Below, piece by piece: positions 36,005 to 42,411 of a stretch of 64,000 nucleotides of DNA. The stretch lies in NCBI GenBank assembly GCA_020056225.1, contig JAGVIE010000025.1:38995-102994 (forward strand), in the 5' to 3' direction. The DNA comes from Bacteroidota bacterium. Its GTDB lineage: Bacteria > Bacteroidota > Ignavibacteria > UBA10030 > SZUA-254. The notes under the pieces were generated by a model that searched no databases, had not been told where the DNA came from, and saw nothing but the letters and a program-made list of their open reading frames with translations. Each line of letters starts with the position of its first letter. Position 1 is the stretch's first letter. The position numbers and the translations under genes are program-made.

Positions 36005-37213
36005 TCAATCATTCGAATCTTCCAGAGGCTTCAAACCAAGTTTTCCCGATTCGTGTTTTAAGATATGAACCAGGAAATTGAGTTTCGGAACCATCCTGCC
36101 GTTGACGAAGATACGGGGCGTCCCATTGACACCAACCCGATGTGCATCTTCTATTAATGCGCCAACTTTGTTCCGATTTTCCACGGTCGTGAGACATAGT
36201 CTCATTGCTGCGGTATCGAGTCCCGCCATCGCACTGATGCGCATAACGTCTCCCGGAACTGCCGTTCGCGGTTGCTGGTTGAAAAACATATCGTGATATT
36301 CCCAGAATTTACCCTGATCCTCTGCGCAGATTGAGCCGAGGGCAGCCCAGCACGCACCGGGATGTTTTTTCGACTTCTGATATGGATTACAACCGGGATC
36401 AAGAGGATAACTTTTAAAATAGACCACCATACGATCTCCCCACGCCGCAATATGCTGTTTGAATATCATACTGACATTTCTGCAATAAGGACAAAGGAAA
36501 TCGGAGTATATCACAACCTTGATCGGCGCATCCACAGAACCCTGGTAAGGTACGTGTTCAAGGTTGAGTGTTTGCACCGGCGCTTTCTCGAATTCTTCTA
36601 TTGCTGCCTCAGCAAAGCGAGCCTCAATGCCGGAGATATCATGATAGGCGATCGCGTAATTTGTTGCGCCCACTGCAACCGCCAGTACAACAACGCCGAT
36701 CATAGAACCGGTTACGAACATTTTCCCATCCGATGTTGCGAGGAGTTCCGCAACCTTCTTCATGCTCGCCCCCCGCCGATACTTCATCAGCGTCAAGAGG
36801 AATATTATTGTCATCGCGTAAGTCGACAGGCAAATAGTGCAAAATGTTTTAAGTATAAAAGCCTGGAGAGCCAGCAAGAGGATATCGACGATCAGAGCAA
36901 AAGCTGCGGTAAAGAAACCGAACCTGTAAGCAAAGTCGAGAGTTTTTCCCCCGCCGACGGCAGCCAAACCTATTACCAGCATCAATGAGAGATAAAAAAA
37001 CAAGCCGAATGCGGCTAACGGTATTCCCCCTACAGTAGAATACTCACTACGGTTAACGGCATCGCACCCGCTCGCAGGATTATCGCCGCATAGCATACTG
37101 ATAAGATAATTCTCGTGGGTTTTGTTGTAATGCTGATACAGAAGGAGACCTGAAAGAAACGCACCGATGAATGCAGTGATGAGGAGAACAAAGACCGTAC
37201 GACGACTGAACAT
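36005..37213 (-). CDS. Vitamin K epoxide reductase (VKOR) domain fused to a periplasmic thioredoxin/DsbA-like domain
   Basis: An N-terminal 5-TM domain with loop cysteines 'CGDNPASGC' and a membrane CxxC 'TFCTICLS'. A C-terminal soluble domain with 'CPYC'. Confidence 0.75.
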   Translation of the reverse strand: MFSRRTVFVLLITAFIGAFLSGLLLYQHYNKTHENYLISMLCGDNPASGCDAVNRSEYSTVGGIPLAAFGLFFYLSLMLVIGLAAVGGGKTLDFAYRFGFFTAAFALIVDILLLALQAFILKTFCTICLSTYAMTIIFLLTLMKYRRGASMKKVAELLATSDGKMFVTGSMIGVVVLAVAVGATNYAIAYHDISGIEARFAEAAIEEFEKAPVQTLNLEHVPYQGSVDAPIKVVIYSDFLCPYCRNVSMIFKQHIAAWGDRMVVYFKSYPLDPGCNPYQKSKKHPGACWAALGSICAEDQGKFWEYHDMFFNQQPRTAVPGDVMRISAMAGLDTAAMRLCLTTVENRNKVGALIEDAHRVGVNGTPRIFVNGRMVPKLNFLVHILKHESGKLGLKPLEDSND

Positions 37214-37413
37214 AATAAGAAACCGATTACTGGAGTGAGTTGATTATAATTGTTTTATAATAGGCAAAGATCAACGAAAAGTCAAGGATAGGAGACGCCA
37301 ACTGGAGGTTGGGAGCTGAAATGCAGAAATGGTTTAAGAAGGTATTCAAAAAGTAGTGCCGAGTGAAGATCATCATTGGCGAAATTTAAAGATCGCCGTG
37401 AGAAGTCTTATAA

Positions 37414-38721
37414 CTAGCGCTTCATTCTATTACTATTACTATTACTATTACTATTACTATTACTATCAATTAGATTTTTGGCTATTGCATCGACAATATT
37501 AACATTTACTGCATTTCCCAATGCCTTAAATGCTTTCGTAGATGCTTCTGGCAAATATTTAAGTTCATCCATACTCTGGAGTTTAGCACACTCCCGCACA
37601 GTCATATATCGTTTCTCCCAAGCGATGATAGGAACTTGCGTGGCGGTCATTGCAACAAGTGATGGCGAAGTTGTTGGTCTTTTCACGCGCACACCTGAAG
37701 CTCGAATCTGAATAATATATTTCCAGATATTACGATCTTCACCATTACAATTCCATTCTAATTTTTGAAGGCTCGGTGGAAATATTTTTATCTTGGGTAG
37801 CCAATCATCTATCCATTTTTTATTCTTTTCATAAAGCCCTCTGTTTTGGTTTATGAATTGTATTTTCCAATCAGGGAATTTGGCTTTTTGGTCGCGTGCA
37901 TGTGATGGTAGCTTGGCAAGATATTTTTTGATTTGAATTTTTTGTTTAGCTCGATCGTCCTTAACTGTCAACTTTTTTATCTTAGCTTTGAAAAGCTTGT
38001 ATGGTGTCTGATCTTTATATGAATACTTAGCACCAAACTCCATGGACCATATAGGAAAAGACGGAAGCTCTTCGTCTTTAGGAAATTTATCGATGAATTG
38101 CTGCCATACTTTGAGGCATTGGATGGTTTGCTTGGTCAGTTTTTTTGCACTAGCAGGATTTTTTGAAAGAATAGATCTTATCCGAAGAATTTTGTGATTA
38201 GAAGGTTTGGGCCATGAGAAATTTGGTAATCCTATTTTGCTTCCAACGATGAAAACGCGATCACGAATTTGTGGTATACCAAATTGATGAGGAGAAAGCC
38301 GCTGGTGCTGAATATAATAACCTGCTTTTTGGAGTTTCTTTTCCATTAACTCCCAAGTTTTGCCATTATCATGCCGTGTGAGGTTGGGGACGTTCTCTAA
38401 GATGAAATACTTTGGCTTATGATACTTGATTATTCTTAATGTATATTCAAAAAGATTACCCGACGTCGGACAATTTAATCCTTTTTGATCTCCAGCTTTT
38501 GAAAACGGTTGGCAAGGGAAGCCAGCACAAAGAATATCGTGTTTTGGAATTTCATGTAATTTAATATCACGGATGTCTCCACGCGGCTCAAAACCAAAAT
38601 TATTTTTATATAATTGTCTAAGATCATCATCAATCTCAGATGCGAAAACACACTCATGTCCCAGTTGTTCTAGAGCTACATGAAAACCACCAAGGCCAGC
38701 ATAGAGATCAATGAATTTCAT
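37414..38721 (-). CDS. dcm: DNA (cytosine-5)-methyltransferase with a C-terminal (Ser-Asn)6 tail
   Basis: Motif I 'FIDLYAGLGGFHVAL'. Motif IV 'GFPCQPFSKAG'. Motif VI 'ILENVPNL'. It ends ...DSNSNSNSNSNSNRMKR. Confidence 0.9.
   Translation of the reverse strand: MKFIDLYAGLGGFHVALEQLGHECVFASEIDDDLRQLYKNNFGFEPRGDIRDIKLHEIPKHDILCAGFPCQPFSKAGDQKGLNCPTSGNLFEYTLRIIKYHKPKYFILENVPNLTRHDNGKTWELMEKKLQKAGYYIQHQRLSPHQFGIPQIRDRVFIVGSKIGLPNFSWPKPSNHKILRIRSILSKNPASAKKLTKQTIQCLKVWQQFIDKFPKDEELPSFPIWSMEFGAKYSYKDQTPYKLFKAKIKKLTVKDDRAKQKIQIKKYLAKLPSHARDQKAKFPDWKIQFINQNRGLYEKNKKWIDDWLPKIKIFPPSLQKLEWNCNGEDRNIWKYIIQIRASGVRVKRPTTSPSLVAMTATQVPIIAWEKRYMTVRECAKLQSMDELKYLPEASTKAFKALGNAVNVNIVDAIAKNLIDSNSNSNSNSNSNRMKR
37429..37464 (-). 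repeat. Hexanucleotide simple-sequence repeat (ATTACT)6 on the plus strand, equal to (AGTAAT)6 encoding (SN)6 at the 3' end of dcm
   Basis: Read directly from the sequence: six perfect tandem 6-bp units, in frame. Confidence 0.9.
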
Positions 38722-38725
38722 TGTA

Positions 38726-39658
38726 CTAATTCACGATTGATTTTAATTTTGATATTCTCGGTTTTAGCCACTTTGTTATTTTAGAATTTAGAGTTTGAGA
38801 AATCCAATTGATATTATCATTTGTGGGAGTTAAGATTCTGTATCTATCAAGGAACATTCCCCTCACTAAATTACAATATTTCCTAAAGTCATAATCTAAA
38901 ACGACATAAGGTATGGCAAATGCTTTTTGCGGTTTAGCAGCGAAAAGAACAAGCTTCTCCCATAGGTCAATATTGGGCGTATGCTGTTTTTTAGACCAAT
39001 CTTGTCCACTAGCGCATTGAAGTAAATATACTGGTATACCTACTCTCTTATCAAAAAAAGGTCGATAACATAATAAATCAAGACCAGCTTCATTAGCGTC
39101 TGAGTTAATCCATTGTTCCCAATCTCCCTTGATTTCACCGAGTCTATCAGAAACTTCCTGAACAATATTCCCAATTTTTTTGGCATTCGTCCTGGTCCAA
39201 CCAGTAGAGAATATGATCCACCCACTGAATTGTTTCTCTAAGGACTCTTTTGTTAGCAATTCAAATAACTCTCCTTGCTCTGTGTAGTCATTACCGAATT
39301 GTTCTGCCAACTTAGGGTAATAAGGTAATAACGAAACAATTAGACAAAAGCTATGAGCAATAGCTTCATTCCAAGAATATTTACGCTTAATTTTTGCAGA
39401 GGCTATAACAAAAGGAGATCCGCTTCCTAATAGTTTCTCCCTTCTTTTTAACTCGCTCCAAATATTGTCAACAAATTCTGAAGCAAAATCTTGATCATCG
39501 TACATTTGTTCCTCAATCAGTACGTCAATTACATCAGTAGTAGATATACGATCTTCAGCAAATAATACGCTTCCTTCAAGCCAATCACATGCAACGTCCA
39601 ATCTTGAATTATGCACATTAATAGAACGAGAAAACCCTTTAGTCGGTAGTCTAAGCAT
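38726..39658 (-). CDS. Hypothetical protein in the Vsr-Dcm operon, a candidate restriction/effector component
   Basis: A 310-aa ORF. A 4-bp gap to dcm and a 12-bp gap from the upstream ParB-like gene. No recognisable catalytic motif. Confidence 0.5.
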   Translation of the reverse strand: MLRLPTKGFSRSINVHNSRLDVACDWLEGSVLFAEDRISTTDVIDVLIEEQMYDDQDFASEFVDNIWSELKRREKLLGSGSPFVIASAKIKRKYSWNEAIAHSFCLIVSLLPYYPKLAEQFGNDYTEQGELFELLTKESLEKQFSGWIIFSTGWTRTNAKKIGNIVQEVSDRLGEIKGDWEQWINSDANEAGLDLLCYRPFFDKRVGIPVYLLQCASGQDWSKKQHTPNIDLWEKLVLFAAKPQKAFAIPYVVLDYDFRKYCNLVRGMFLDRYRILTPTNDNINWISQTLNSKITKWLKPRISKLKSIVN

Positions 39659-39670
39659 GTAAATTCCAAA

Positions 39671-40774
39671 TCATTTTTTTTGTTCGGCAGTAATTACTGG
39701 AAACATTTCCAAAATTTGACTAGCATCCGCACTGAATCTCTTTATCGCTTCTTGTACTTTTTTTGACTTCTTATAGAAATGTACACGTGTCAACGCTAAT
39801 TCAATGTTATCTGATGCTTTCTCAATTAAATCAACTATCTCGGGTTCGTCTCCTCCAGCTAAATTATGTGCGATGTCAAAGCTTGGCTTGTCAGTTCTCT
39901 CTAGATATTTTACAGCTTCTCCACTTTCCAAAATCCGTCCGAAACGATCCACTTGCCGCGAATCAGTAAACAACGCTGGAGTCTTGTCATCGCCGAATAA
40001 CCAGAGAGCGAAATTTGCAAGAGCCTTCAAGTGTTTTTTGGGGACTGGAACCTTTGCATTTTTGGGATTAGCCTGAATATCGATTTGAAGATATTTCTGA
40101 ACACCCTGTGTACGTAATGATAGGTACATTACGCTAAATCGTTCTTCAAAATTTTCTTCTGGAATTTGTTGTACGTTGTCTTCTATCTCAAGTAATAACC
40201 GATAAGCGATATAATTTTGCCTCACTACTGGAGTCTTGCTTCCAATTTTACGCATGACTTCTTCGTAGGTCAAACCTCGATCATCTATTAACTTTGCAAT
40301 AAATTCTGCCTTTTCAGCAGGCTTCCATTCTTTTATCCCGGTAACATGACGAAAACCCAGAAAAGCCTCTACGTCTTCTCGCTTGTCAGCCTTTAGATAA
40401 GGAATTTTTGTGAATAAATCTTTGGTCGGTTTTGCACTTTTTGCTATTTCTGCCCATTTAGAAGATATTGGATTTCCATTATATGCTTCTTGTAGCAATT
40501 TAAGTGCAGCGAGTCTACGATTACCTTCAATAACAACTAATCTTGATTTTCCGTATAATTTTTCATTACAAACAATTAAAGCCTCTTGGGTCCAAAAACC
40601 GCCACTCTCTAAAAACGATGTTGCGAGTTCTTCTAATGTCCAATCTCTCATCAGGTCTAAAACATCTTTTTGACTCACATCATCTCCAGTGTTATTCCGG
40701 CCGAGACGTGGATTAAGAGGATCAAGATAAAGATCCTCAAGTTTTGCATTTTCAAGTGCCCTGCTAATCGCCAT
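39671..40774 (-). CDS. ParB/Srx-like N-terminal domain protein (ParB-like nuclease fold) in the Vsr-Dcm operon
   Basis: 'LEDLYLDPLNPRLGRN' resembles the ParB box. 'RLVVIEGNRRLAALKLL' matches the ParB/sulfiredoxin-fold arginine motif. Its start overlaps the vsr stop by 11 bp. Confidence 0.55.
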   Translation of the reverse strand: MAISRALENAKLEDLYLDPLNPRLGRNNTGDDVSQKDVLDLMRDWTLEELATSFLESGGFWTQEALIVCNEKLYGKSRLVVIEGNRRLAALKLLQEAYNGNPISSKWAEIAKSAKPTKDLFTKIPYLKADKREDVEAFLGFRHVTGIKEWKPAEKAEFIAKLIDDRGLTYEEVMRKIGSKTPVVRQNYIAYRLLLEIEDNVQQIPEENFEERFSVMYLSLRTQGVQKYLQIDIQANPKNAKVPVPKKHLKALANFALWLFGDDKTPALFTDSRQVDRFGRILESGEAVKYLERTDKPSFDIAHNLAGGDEPEIVDLIEKASDNIELALTRVHFYKKSKKVQEAIKRFSADASQILEMFPVITAEQKK

Positions 40775-41243
40775 CTTCTTTACCTCTTAATATTGTTGTT
40801 ATACGTCTTATAACATAATCTGTATTTCTTATTATATCTGATTCCCAAAATCTTGCAACTTGCAATCCCATTCTTTTTAAAGATTTTGTATTGTTTCTGT
40901 CGTGAATTTTATTATTCCCAATTTTAGCTATCCAATACTTCGAGTTTGTGCCTCGTTGTAAATTTCTTTTTAACGTTCTCCAATACCGGCCATGCCAAAA
41001 GTCACCATCACAAAATACTGCTAACCGTTCAGACGGAAAAACGATATCTGGCTTGCCAGGCAAAGATTTTACATGCCTCTTAAATTTCAATCCCTGCTTG
41101 TTCAATTCGCTCATCAGAAGCAGTTCATGCTTTGTCTTTGTGCTTTTGTTTGCACGTTTTGAAAACGAGGCAATCTCGGATGCAGGTTTCAATCCTTTAT
41201 AAGAAGGGGCACTCTTCTTCCTTATGTTCGATGATCGTGTCAT
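40764..41243 (-). CDS. vsr: Very-short-patch repair endonuclease Vsr
   Basis: 'TKTKHELLLMSELNKQGLKFKRHVKSLPGKPDIVFPSERLAVFCDGDFWHGRYW' shows the canonical Vsr motifs (TKPE..L, LPGKPD, FVDGCFWH). Confidence 0.85.
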   Translation of the reverse strand: MTRSSNIRKKSAPSYKGLKPASEIASFSKRANKSTKTKHELLLMSELNKQGLKFKRHVKSLPGKPDIVFPSERLAVFCDGDFWHGRYWRTLKRNLQRGTNSKYWIAKIGNNKIHDRNNTKSLKRMGLQVARFWESDIIRNTDYVIRRITTILRGKEDGD

Positions 41244-41381
41244 TAGTTACCGATGGAAGATACAAAAAAAAAGAGAATATTGCATACTGATCCCTTGTAA
41301 TATTTACCTTCCAACTCTTTAAATCGTAATGTACAATTTAGCACAAATTTCTTGTCAGCTTCAAACCAACAGTTGCAAAAG

Positions 41382-41525
41382 TCCCCTCTTCCATAGCCCT
41401 AACTTTGGTGAGAGGGGATTTTCCGCCAGAGGCGGATGCGCCTCCGGCGCAAGGGGTGTGTCGCATGAGCCACGAGCTCTGCTTTATAACTACACACCCC
41501 TGTAGTCCCCTCTCAAGAGGGGACT
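41382..41525. repeat. Cluster of five consecutive GC-rich hairpins (REP/MITE-like structured element) between the Vsr operon and the upstream gene
   Basis: TCCCCTCT...AGAGGGGA (41382-41418). CCGCC-aga-GGCGG (41423-41435). GCGCC-tcc-GGCGC (41438-41450). GGGGTGTGT...ACACACCCC (41453-41500). AGTCCCCTCT-caag-AGAGGGGACT (41504-41525). Confidence 0.6.
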
Positions 41526-41526
41526 T

Positions 41527-42411
41527 TTAAATCAGCACCCCATCCTTCCATCCAAGCTTGATAAGCTCAATCTTCTTCATATCGGCTACACCAACTCCAT
41601 GCTTATGCTCTGCTGCTGCAATATGTTTTGGTGACGGGCGTATTGGCAAGTCTCCCTTGAAATACTGCCGCCGTTTTGCCTCGATTATTTTCAGCCCAAC
41701 CGAGTCGAGCGCTACCGGATCCGTCCCAACAAGCAATCCTTTGTATTGCCAGATAAATTCTTTATCAAAATGATGAGGTCCAAGACAATTAAACTGCGGC
41801 GTCATCATCAAAAGAACATTTAACCGCGTTTTACCTTTCACAATCGGAAGGTTGTACAAACTCCCCAGATCAACACACGAGTCGGGATGAAGATCCGACG
41901 GCTCGGGGGCGAACATAATATAATTCTTCAAACAGCCGCTCACACCTGCCCAATGATGCGCCCGCATCGGGCGTGAATTAATCAATGCAGTTGCCTTAAG
42001 GAAGACGGGGTTTTGTAAAACACCTTGGTCATCGATGCTGATATTTGCCTCCTGAACACCGACAGACCTGAGCCGAGATTTCAGTGTGTTCTCAACTTCT
42101 GCCGGCGTGGGTAAATACTTCCACCTGTTCGATTTTATACCAACAATATCCGTCGGCTTGATGATCTGCTTCCATGCCGCTTCGGGGGTTTTCGCATCGA
42201 ACAATTTTATCATCGCTTCATCGAGCATCTGCTCAAAAATCTTCTGATCGATCTTTCCGTCTTTATCTACAATGTTCTGGTGACGAATAAGTATGACCTT
42301 TGATTTCTTTTCCAATGCTTGATTTGCAAATAATGGTACCCCCGCGGTGGCTATGAGTGCGGCAGCGCCTGTCTTGCGAAGAAAATCCCTGCGAGTAATT
42401 ATGTGTGTCAT
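41527..42411 (-). CDS. Tat-signal-bearing hypothetical protein
   Basis: 'RRDFLRKTGAAALIATAGVPLFA' is a twin-arginine signal. A 294-aa ORF. There is a 4-bp overlap with the upstream gene. Confidence 0.5.
   Translation of the reverse strand: MTHIITRRDFLRKTGAAALIATAGVPLFANQALEKKSKVILIRHQNIVDKDGKIDQKIFEQMLDEAMIKLFDAKTPEAAWKQIIKPTDIVGIKSNRWKYLPTPAEVENTLKSRLRSVGVQEANISIDDQGVLQNPVFLKATALINSRPMRAHHWAGVSGCLKNYIMFAPEPSDLHPDSCVDLGSLYNLPIVKGKTRLNVLLMMTPQFNCLGPHHFDKEFIWQYKGLLVGTDPVALDSVGLKIIEAKRRQYFKGDLPIRPSPKHIAAAEHKHGVGVADMKKIELIKLGWKDGVLI

Follow-up and report, generated by a model that had tools for sequence, protein, structure and literature searches.

Classical Type II restriction-modification (R-M) systems that produce 5-methylcytosine (m5C) and are accompanied by Vsr include those of the EcoRII/Dcm-Vsr and HpaII types. 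Here we describe a four-gene island in a 64-kb window (the whole stretch of DNA analysed, 64,000 nucleotides of contig JAGVIE010000025.1 from a Bacteroidota bacterium of the Ignavibacteria lineage) that invites comparison with these systems. The island lies entirely on the minus strand and consists of vsr (40764-41243), encoding a 159-amino-acid (aa) very-short-patch (T:G mismatch) repair endonuclease, the gene for a 367-aa protein, ParB367 (39671-40774), the gene for a 310-aa protein, X310 (38726-39658), and dcm (37414-38721), encoding a 435-aa C5-cytosine DNA methyltransferase whose variable (target-recognition) region is long. A preliminary description of the window had listed these four open reading frames (ORFs) as a candidate atypical restriction module, and each was found at the coordinates it gave. 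As in the classical systems, Dcm and Vsr stand beside a protein with a predicted PD-(D/E)XK nuclease fold. Unlike them, the island has an obligatory second protein, a proposed subunit with a nucleoside triphosphate (NTP)-binding fold, and the ParB367-X310 pair is also found without a methyltransferase. Of the features that define a Type II system, a DNA methyltransferase with intact catalytic motifs is present in the form of Dcm, while a single-polypeptide, Mg2+-only restriction endonuclease of a recognised family is missing, X310 being invariably accompanied by a ParB-fold protein that has a nucleotide-binding box.

The closest validated system is PD-λ-5 (PMC9519451; PADLOC models PD-Lambda-5_A and PD-Lambda-5_B), a two-gene prophage system with validated broad anti-phage defence, which its authors described as a compact R-M plus abortive infection (RM+Abi) system (PMC9519451). 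In PD-λ-5, as in the island, a protein with a ParB N-domain is encoded beside a DNA methyltransferase, and the N-domain is homologous to that of ParB367. This likeness to a validated anti-phage system supports an R-M reading of the island. Of ParB367, only aa 8-161 are covered by the PADLOC PD-Lambda-5_A models (4.5e-15; profile positions about 5-161 of 430-590). The C-terminus of PD-λ-5A (about 450-500 aa) is weakly DUF4145/HEPN-like, whereas ParB367 continues into a helix-turn-helix (HTH) and a helical domain; the PD-λ-5 methyltransferase is Dam-like (MethyltransfD12), whereas that of the island is a C5 Dcm (PF00145); and PD-λ-5 is without the separate protein of winged HTH (wHTH) and PD-(D/E)XK fold that the island encodes as an extra gene.

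ParB-superfamily nucleotide-binding domains are also combined with nucleases in the Type IV systems GmrSD, BrxU, SspE and TgvAB, which restrict foreign DNA (PMC12065111, PMC12839542). These proteins belong to the DUF262 branch (DGQQR), are usually fused to an HNH DUF1524 nuclease, depend on modification and have no cognate methyltransferase. ParB367 differs from them in its canonical-ParB-like GxxRxxA box (EGNRR) and its HTH. The ParB domain of Menshen, like those of GmrSD and SspE, is of the DUF262 branch, which ParB367 does not match. The NTP-dependent systems McrBC/LlaJI and CglI/NgoAVII are built from unrelated folds. In those systems a PLD nuclease carrying a B3 domain works with an SF2 helicase-like motor, or an AAA+ GTPase is employed; the island instead has a nuclease of the PD-(D/E)XK fold, and its putative NTP-binding subunit is of the ParB/Srx fold.

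In the literature and in the Pfam, NCBIfam and PADLOC models searched, we found no description of the ParB367-X310 pair as a system, and a 2025 survey of the ParB-CTPase fold covers domain fusions only (PMC12704722). The preliminary description had held that the architecture is not a standard described one. That statement holds for the pair and has to be qualified by PD-λ-5, which is validated and follows a related logic: ParB-fold proteins are already known from R-M-like defence, and the present pair is a large unannotated family. On the evidence set out below we lean modestly towards reading the island as an m5C R-M system whose restriction enzyme would be a two-subunit, NTP-binding complex of ParB367 and X310, and horizontal acquisition of the four genes forms part of that explanation.

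The ParB367-X310 pair and its methyltransferase partners

Homologues of X310 number 362 at 90% clustering and about 2300 representatives at 50% in an exhaustive HMM search, and those of ParB367 more than 2500 at 90% clustering; all are unannotated. A genome scan recovered 61 loci of the pair in more than 12 phyla, including Planctomycetota, Poribacteria, Acidobacteriota, Chloroflexota, Zixibacteria, Ignavibacteria, Bacteroidota, Proteobacteria and Verrucomicrobiota. Wherever a locus includes enough upstream sequence, the ParB367 gene immediately precedes that of X310 on the same strand, often with an overlap of 1-4 nt. Furthermore, the pairwise identities of ParB367 and X310 correlate with r = 0.86, a value reached in none of 2000 Mantel permutations. 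ParB367 and X310 are a conserved, co-evolving unit.

Linkage counts to METHYLTRANSFERASES were taken over the 47 non-redundant loci that have 2.5 kb or more on each side, about 13 kb being inspected per genome. A full-length Dcm of one cognate clade was found within 2.5 kb of the pair in 27 of the 47 loci; it was co-oriented and downstream in 19 (at a distance of 12-60 nt in most), convergent and downstream in four, and upstream in four. The identity of this Dcm co-varies with that of the pair (r about 0.48-0.49, again reached in 0 of 2000 Mantel permutations). Other methyltransferases take the position of the cognate Dcm at further loci, namely another C5-methyltransferase near the pair (4/47) or a PF01555 N6/N4 methyltransferase directly upstream of it (2/47), and this replacement of one type by another also supports the R-M reading. 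Vsr was near the pair in 14 of the 47 loci, 12 of which have the cognate Dcm too. The preliminary description had proposed that the two middle genes occupy the place of a restriction enzyme beside dcm and vsr, and that conservation of the gene neighbourhood would bear on this. The invariant pairing and the linked, co-varying Dcm clade agree with that proposal.

About 13 of the 47 loci had no methyltransferase within about 5 kb. Since roughly a quarter of the loci are without an adjacent methyltransferase and keep their key residues intact, the pair is not strictly a component of R-M systems, and these loci are the chief evidence against a strict R-M reading. Some of the methyltransferase-free pairs have metabolic genes as neighbours (Poribacteria). 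One is flanked by an integrase on one side and a Mu-type transposase on the other, and downstream of another is the gene for a 1472-aa helicase-nuclease. A distant pair, carried by a Persicobacter plasmid, likewise has no methyltransferase nearby.

These loci bear on a different reading of the pair, as an autonomous defence nuclease that acts independently of methylation and might sense phage DNA ends, replication intermediates or some other cue in the manner of an Abi system, with Dcm as a frequent but optional add-on. The pair is the only invariant unit, its copies at the methyltransferase-free loci keep all key residues, the Persicobacter pair is also without a methyltransferase nearby, and PD-λ-5 was itself described as RM+Abi. 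Set against this are the single Dcm clade that shares an operon with the pair in most loci and varies in step with it, and the recurrence of Dcm beside the pair in remote phage relatives. Additionally, the solitary loci were inspected over about 13 kb per genome, a span that leaves room for a methyltransferase acting in trans. We consider an autonomous nuclease rather unlikely.

The phage relatives carry the same combination of genes in a different setting. ParB367 matches phrog_3694 over its full length (5.8e-54) and X310 matches phrog_14650 (9e-21), both PHROGs of unknown function. A tblastn search with ParB367 led to P2-like phages, namely Wphi, vB_EcoM-12474 I-V, L-413C, HQ103 and Pseudomonas D14A, in which the gene for a 'ParB N-terminal domain' protein precedes that for a hypothetical protein of 299-369 aa, and a convergent DNA cytosine methyltransferase comes next. 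Examples are phage Wphi (orf98-orf96-mth; locus L067), vB_EcoM-12474III (gp04-06; L068) and Pseudomonas phage D14A (L069). The Dcm of this triad is short. The triad occupies the variable defence locus, which has the portal/cos end on one side and replication gene A on the other, and it was found in 36 of 5426 complete E. coli genomes, including O145:H28 chromosomes. A paper on the P2 hotspots mentions neither ParB nor methyltransferases (PMC9122126). The repetition of ParB protein, partner and Dcm in P2-like phages and E. coli is a further point in support of the R-M reading.

In the Poribacteria loci that lack the cognate Dcm, X310 is followed by a conserved ORF of about 170 aa (L016:7069-7590, L019:7082-7588, L023:7272-7781, L025:7202-7780 and L031:7043-7441). 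Its copies are 76-96% identical to one another, have no Pfam match and carry the motif DG..IVLEVEAGRA, which is reminiscent of a PD-(D/E)XK signature; two of these loci have an N6_N4 methyltransferase upstream of the pair. This could be a second small R-M system, or a fourth component. A Holophagales contig contains only a fragment of X310 (L064:6116-6406, residues 169-264) and no ParB367 homologue, and is probably a decayed copy of the module.

Predicted folds and conserved residues of X310 and ParB367

Searches with phmmer and hmmsearch gave no match for X310 in Pfam (including the RE_* families), NCBIfam, PADLOC or PDB sequences. The structural model was confident (predicted local distance difference test, pLDDT, 89.2; predicted template modelling score, pTM, 0.89) and depicts a winged helix at about aa 20-95 and a domain of the PD-(D/E)XK restriction-endonuclease fold at about aa 120-310. 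Two independent structure searches returned both the wHTH and the restriction-endonuclease fold, and the C-terminal domain contains the alpha-beta-beta-beta-alpha-beta core. We thus regard the PD-(D/E)XK fold of X310 as established at the level of the predicted model. The 310-aa protein had previously been described as lacking any recognisable motif, which no longer applies. It had also been suggested that a match to a known restriction endonuclease family would make the locus an ordinary R-M system; such a match exists at the level of fold, and X310 belongs to no known restriction endonuclease family.

The top Foldseek matches of X310 were BsaWI, EcoT38I, MspJI, Bse634I and NucS/EndoMS, all of them weak. 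Its catalytic domain is most similar among restriction endonucleases to MspJI and the CCGG family of NgoMIV, Cfr10I, BsaWI and Bse634I. In contrast to the CCGG family and other Type II enzymes, X310 has no sequence-family membership and lacks the canonical (D/E)xK lysine. The putative active-site segment, as read from the translation, is D194...D203-x-R205...Q214-C215-A-S217...K224 (38987-39079, minus strand). In the model, E133 is located in the helix preceding the sheet, D194 at the start of beta-2 and Q214-C215 in beta-3. The position of the usual catalytic lysine is taken by A216, and an invariant lysine, K224, is found in the next helix. The residues of this segment are invariant in 43 homologues and at loci both with and without a methyltransferase, and are also conserved in the remote partner proteins of the P2 phages. 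K224 could substitute for the canonical lysine. We infer that X310 may be catalytically competent, with a variant site formed by E133, D194, Q214 and K224.

ParB367 is composed of a ParB/Srx-fold, putatively NTP-binding domain (aa 1-145), an HTH (aa 151-208) and a large helical C-terminal domain (aa 209-367). The EGNRR sequence noted in the preliminary description corresponds to ParB box II, or P-motif (GxxRxxA), and is read from the translation at 40514-40528 on the minus strand. Across 41 homologues and every group of loci, box II residues E83, G84, N85, R86, R87 and A89 do not vary, and the N-terminal domain thus combines the ParB/Srx fold with an intact GxxRxxA box. A ParB367 profile gave nothing meaningful against PDB sequences; in structure searches the best matches were KorB, pNOB8 ParB, PadC and Spo0J. 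The canonical CTP-gated clamps ParB, KorB and Noc are laid out in the same three tiers, with box II in an N-terminal ParB/Srx domain, an HTH in the middle and a further domain at the C-terminus. ParB367 differs from these in its C-terminal domain of about 160 aa, which is unrelated by sequence, and in always having a nuclease-fold partner.

The resemblance to KorB raises the alternative that X310 is an ordinary stand-alone Type II restriction endonuclease and that ParB367 is a KorB-like regulator timing the expression of restriction and modification. ParB367 exceeds every known R-M controller in size and, by a wide margin, in conservation (65-74% identity between phyla). Never missing from the pair, it co-evolves with X310, to which it is in most cases coupled in translation, and the pair persists where there is no methyltransferase to regulate. 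A purely regulatory ParB367 is therefore unlikely in our estimation.

The ParB-type domain might also suggest a modification-dependent, Type IV-like enzyme that is merely clustered with Dcm and Vsr in islands of the immigration-control type. ParB367 and X310 gave no match to PF03235 or PF07510 at E <= 0.1; the absence of PF03235, together with EGNRR in place of DGQQR, puts ParB367 outside the DUF262 branch. No modification-reading domain of the SRA, PUA or YTH type was seen in the ParB367 or X310 model. Furthermore, a modification-dependent nuclease transcribed together with a Dcm that evolves alongside it would lead to self-destruction unless the two enzymes had different specificities. We regard this Type IV-like arrangement as highly improbable.

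Dcm, Vsr and the setting of the island

Dcm matches PF00145 (1e-71) and TIGR00675 (7.6e-70) over its full length. The catalytic motifs are all readable in its translation, which contains motifs I, IV (GFPCQPFS), VI (ENV), VIII (QIRDR) and X (GNAV). The catalytic half is closest to M.HhaI (2e-49), and the variable region of about 175 aa gave no information on specificity. A tandem repeat of the hexanucleotide CTATTA (plus strand), with seven units at 37427-37468, encodes a C-terminal (Ser-Asn)n tail that is absent in homologues, whose alignments stop at about residue 420-435. As the repeat is in frame, it is no obvious phase-variation switch.

Word counts around the pair loci were used to look for the Dcm target. 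Pooled avoidance of 4-mers showed no dependence on the presence of the cognate Dcm at a locus. Among 6-mers, GAGCTC alone stands out as the palindrome most selectively depleted near cognate-Dcm loci, with 37 occurrences compared to 83.5 expected under a pooled Markov model (observed/expected, O/E, 0.44). Near pair loci without the cognate Dcm the count was 70 compared to 71.9 expected (O/E 0.97), and the words one letter away from GAGCTC are over-represented. The one-sided p value of this contrast, 5e-5 over 111 words, is that of a post hoc comparison among host genomes that are not independent. In the 64-kb window GAGCTC occurs once (41474-41479), where 7-9 are expected, and the site lies inside the hairpin element adjoining vsr. 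We treat GAGCTC as a lead towards a candidate Dcm target.

A second word, GGCC, was considered as a Dcm target and ruled out. It occurs 14 times across the window (642, 2074, 8462, 11019, 12552, 15351, 20302, 21371, 24810, 38210, 38694, 40699, 40988 and 57218), compared to about 102 expected (z = -8.7), and four of the 14 sites are inside the 3.8-kb island. GGCC is likewise depleted in all Poribacteria loci, regardless of whether the cognate Dcm is present. The depletion in the host suggests long-standing pressure from a GGCC-specific R-M system in the lineage, unrelated to the island.

The same distribution bears on the origin of the island. The density of GGCC within it is about six times that of the GGCC-depleted host DNA, with 4/14 sites inside the island, and this supports a foreign origin of the four genes. 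In addition, their GC content is 0.35-0.38, compared to 0.43-0.49 in the DNA on either side. The genes are tightly packed, with an 11-nt overlap between vsr and ParB367, a 12-nt gap between ParB367 and X310 and a 4-nt gap between X310 and dcm. The flanks consist of ordinary chromosomal genes, namely an EamA transporter and VKOR-DsbA on one side and DUF362, DUF6599 and an OPT transporter on the other. No mobility genes, att-like sequences, target duplications or flanking direct repeats were found around the island.

The setting of the pair is also relevant to a role outside defence, either in the maintenance or partition of mobile elements or in accessory DNA repair linked to m5C. In its favour, the architecture of ParB367 is ParB-like, a distant homologue is called a 'ParB/RepB/Spo0J family partition protein' by PGAP, and copies of the pair are found on plasmids, in prophages and beside transposases. 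Neither in the window nor at the other loci inspected, however, does a ParA-like gene adjoin the pair, and a partition context is missing there; the constant partner is a nuclease-fold protein instead. The island of the window is chromosomal, its neighbours are housekeeping genes, and neither replicon nor mobility genes were found there. Vsr is present in only 14 of the 47 loci. Such non-defence roles seem to us scarcely probable.

Vsr was recognised by TIGR00632 (103.5 bits at a cutoff of 97.85, 8.4e-30) and by PF03852 (6.4e-20). It aligns with E. coli Vsr (1cw0) at 4e-14. In this alignment the catalytic Asp/His residues D51, H69 and D97 have equivalents in the island protein, but the Zn-binding positions C66, H71 and C73 are not conserved (FCDGDFWHGRYW versus FTHGCFWHHHHC). 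The preliminary description had presented a Vsr-first operon as part of the architecture. This order is real in the window but does not extend to the family, as elsewhere Vsr comes last, lies on the opposite strand or is absent; the Vsr-first order is a local rearrangement.

Between the stop of the upstream DUF362 gene and vsr lies a compound palindromic element of 152 nt (41377-41528) made up of inverted repeats. It is single-copy in the window and folds at -90 kcal/mol (z = -9.2 compared to shuffled sequences), with four copies of AAGTCCCCTCT within two nested hairpins. The cluster of GC-rich hairpins that had been read as the boundary of an acquired island thus exists as a single compound palindrome, but it is no evidence of mobility; neither flanking repeats nor mobility genes were found. 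An interpretation as a repeated MITE or REP element was not supported, since the palindrome is single-copy and only its terminal hairpin of 23-38 nt recurs, in 12 unrelated metagenome contigs. An Rfam search of 36500-42000 matched no RNA family. The element could be a terminator or an insulator.

A proposed NTP-dependent restriction enzyme and its implications

In our proposed model of the R-M system, Dcm would methylate a specific sequence in the host and thereby protect host DNA, and Vsr would repair the T:G mismatches that arise from deamination of m5C, limiting the mutational cost of the modification. X310 would contribute recognition through its winged helix and cleavage through its PD-(D/E)XK domain. 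The part of ParB367 would be to bind CTP or ATP as its NTP, to engage DNA and to license X310 for, or deliver it to, unmethylated DNA, so that the predicted complex would act as an NTP-dependent, methylation-sensitive nuclease directed against phages. The role of ParB367 as an NTP switch is proposed by analogy with the CTP-gated clamps ParB and KorB and with the NTP-dependent restriction endonucleases McrBC/LlaJI, CglI/NgoAVII and Type III.

Several observations weigh against this model. The approximately 13 of 47 loci without a methyltransferase within about 5 kb keep all putative catalytic and NTP-binding residues, which would be unusual for a methylation-sensitive restriction endonuclease unless a methyltransferase acts in trans. 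The GAGCTC signal is post hoc and comes from hosts that are not independent. Finally, neither the type of NTP (CTP, ATP or GTP) nor its hydrolysis can be predicted from the sequence or models of a protein such as ParB367 (PMC12704722).

A more specific version, which we put forward tentatively and with less confidence than the R-M reading itself, is that the pair founds a new class of nucleotide-dependent restriction endonuclease. In this class a ParB-type NTP clamp, possibly a CTP clamp, would close on DNA and slide or spread, coupling recognition of an unmethylated site to cleavage by X310. If true, this would be the first use of a ParB clamp as the long-range communication device of an R-M system. 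It would represent a fourth nucleotide-dependent solution to communication along DNA, after the helicase-like motors of Type I, ISP and CglI enzymes, the ATP switch of Type III enzymes and the AAA+ GTPase of McrBC.

Because neither the nuclease nor the pair has a Pfam, NCBIfam or PADLOC model, current defence-finding tools would overlook the module and call the locus an orphan Dcm-Vsr. The family is widespread, both in environmental bacteria and in the defence hotspots of P2-like prophages of E. coli. The prophage relative in E. coli (Wphi orf98-orf96-mth; O145:H28 strains) makes the hypothesis experimentally tractable. If the hypothesis is correct, the ParB-CTPase fold would gain a role in immunity outside the DUF262 branch.

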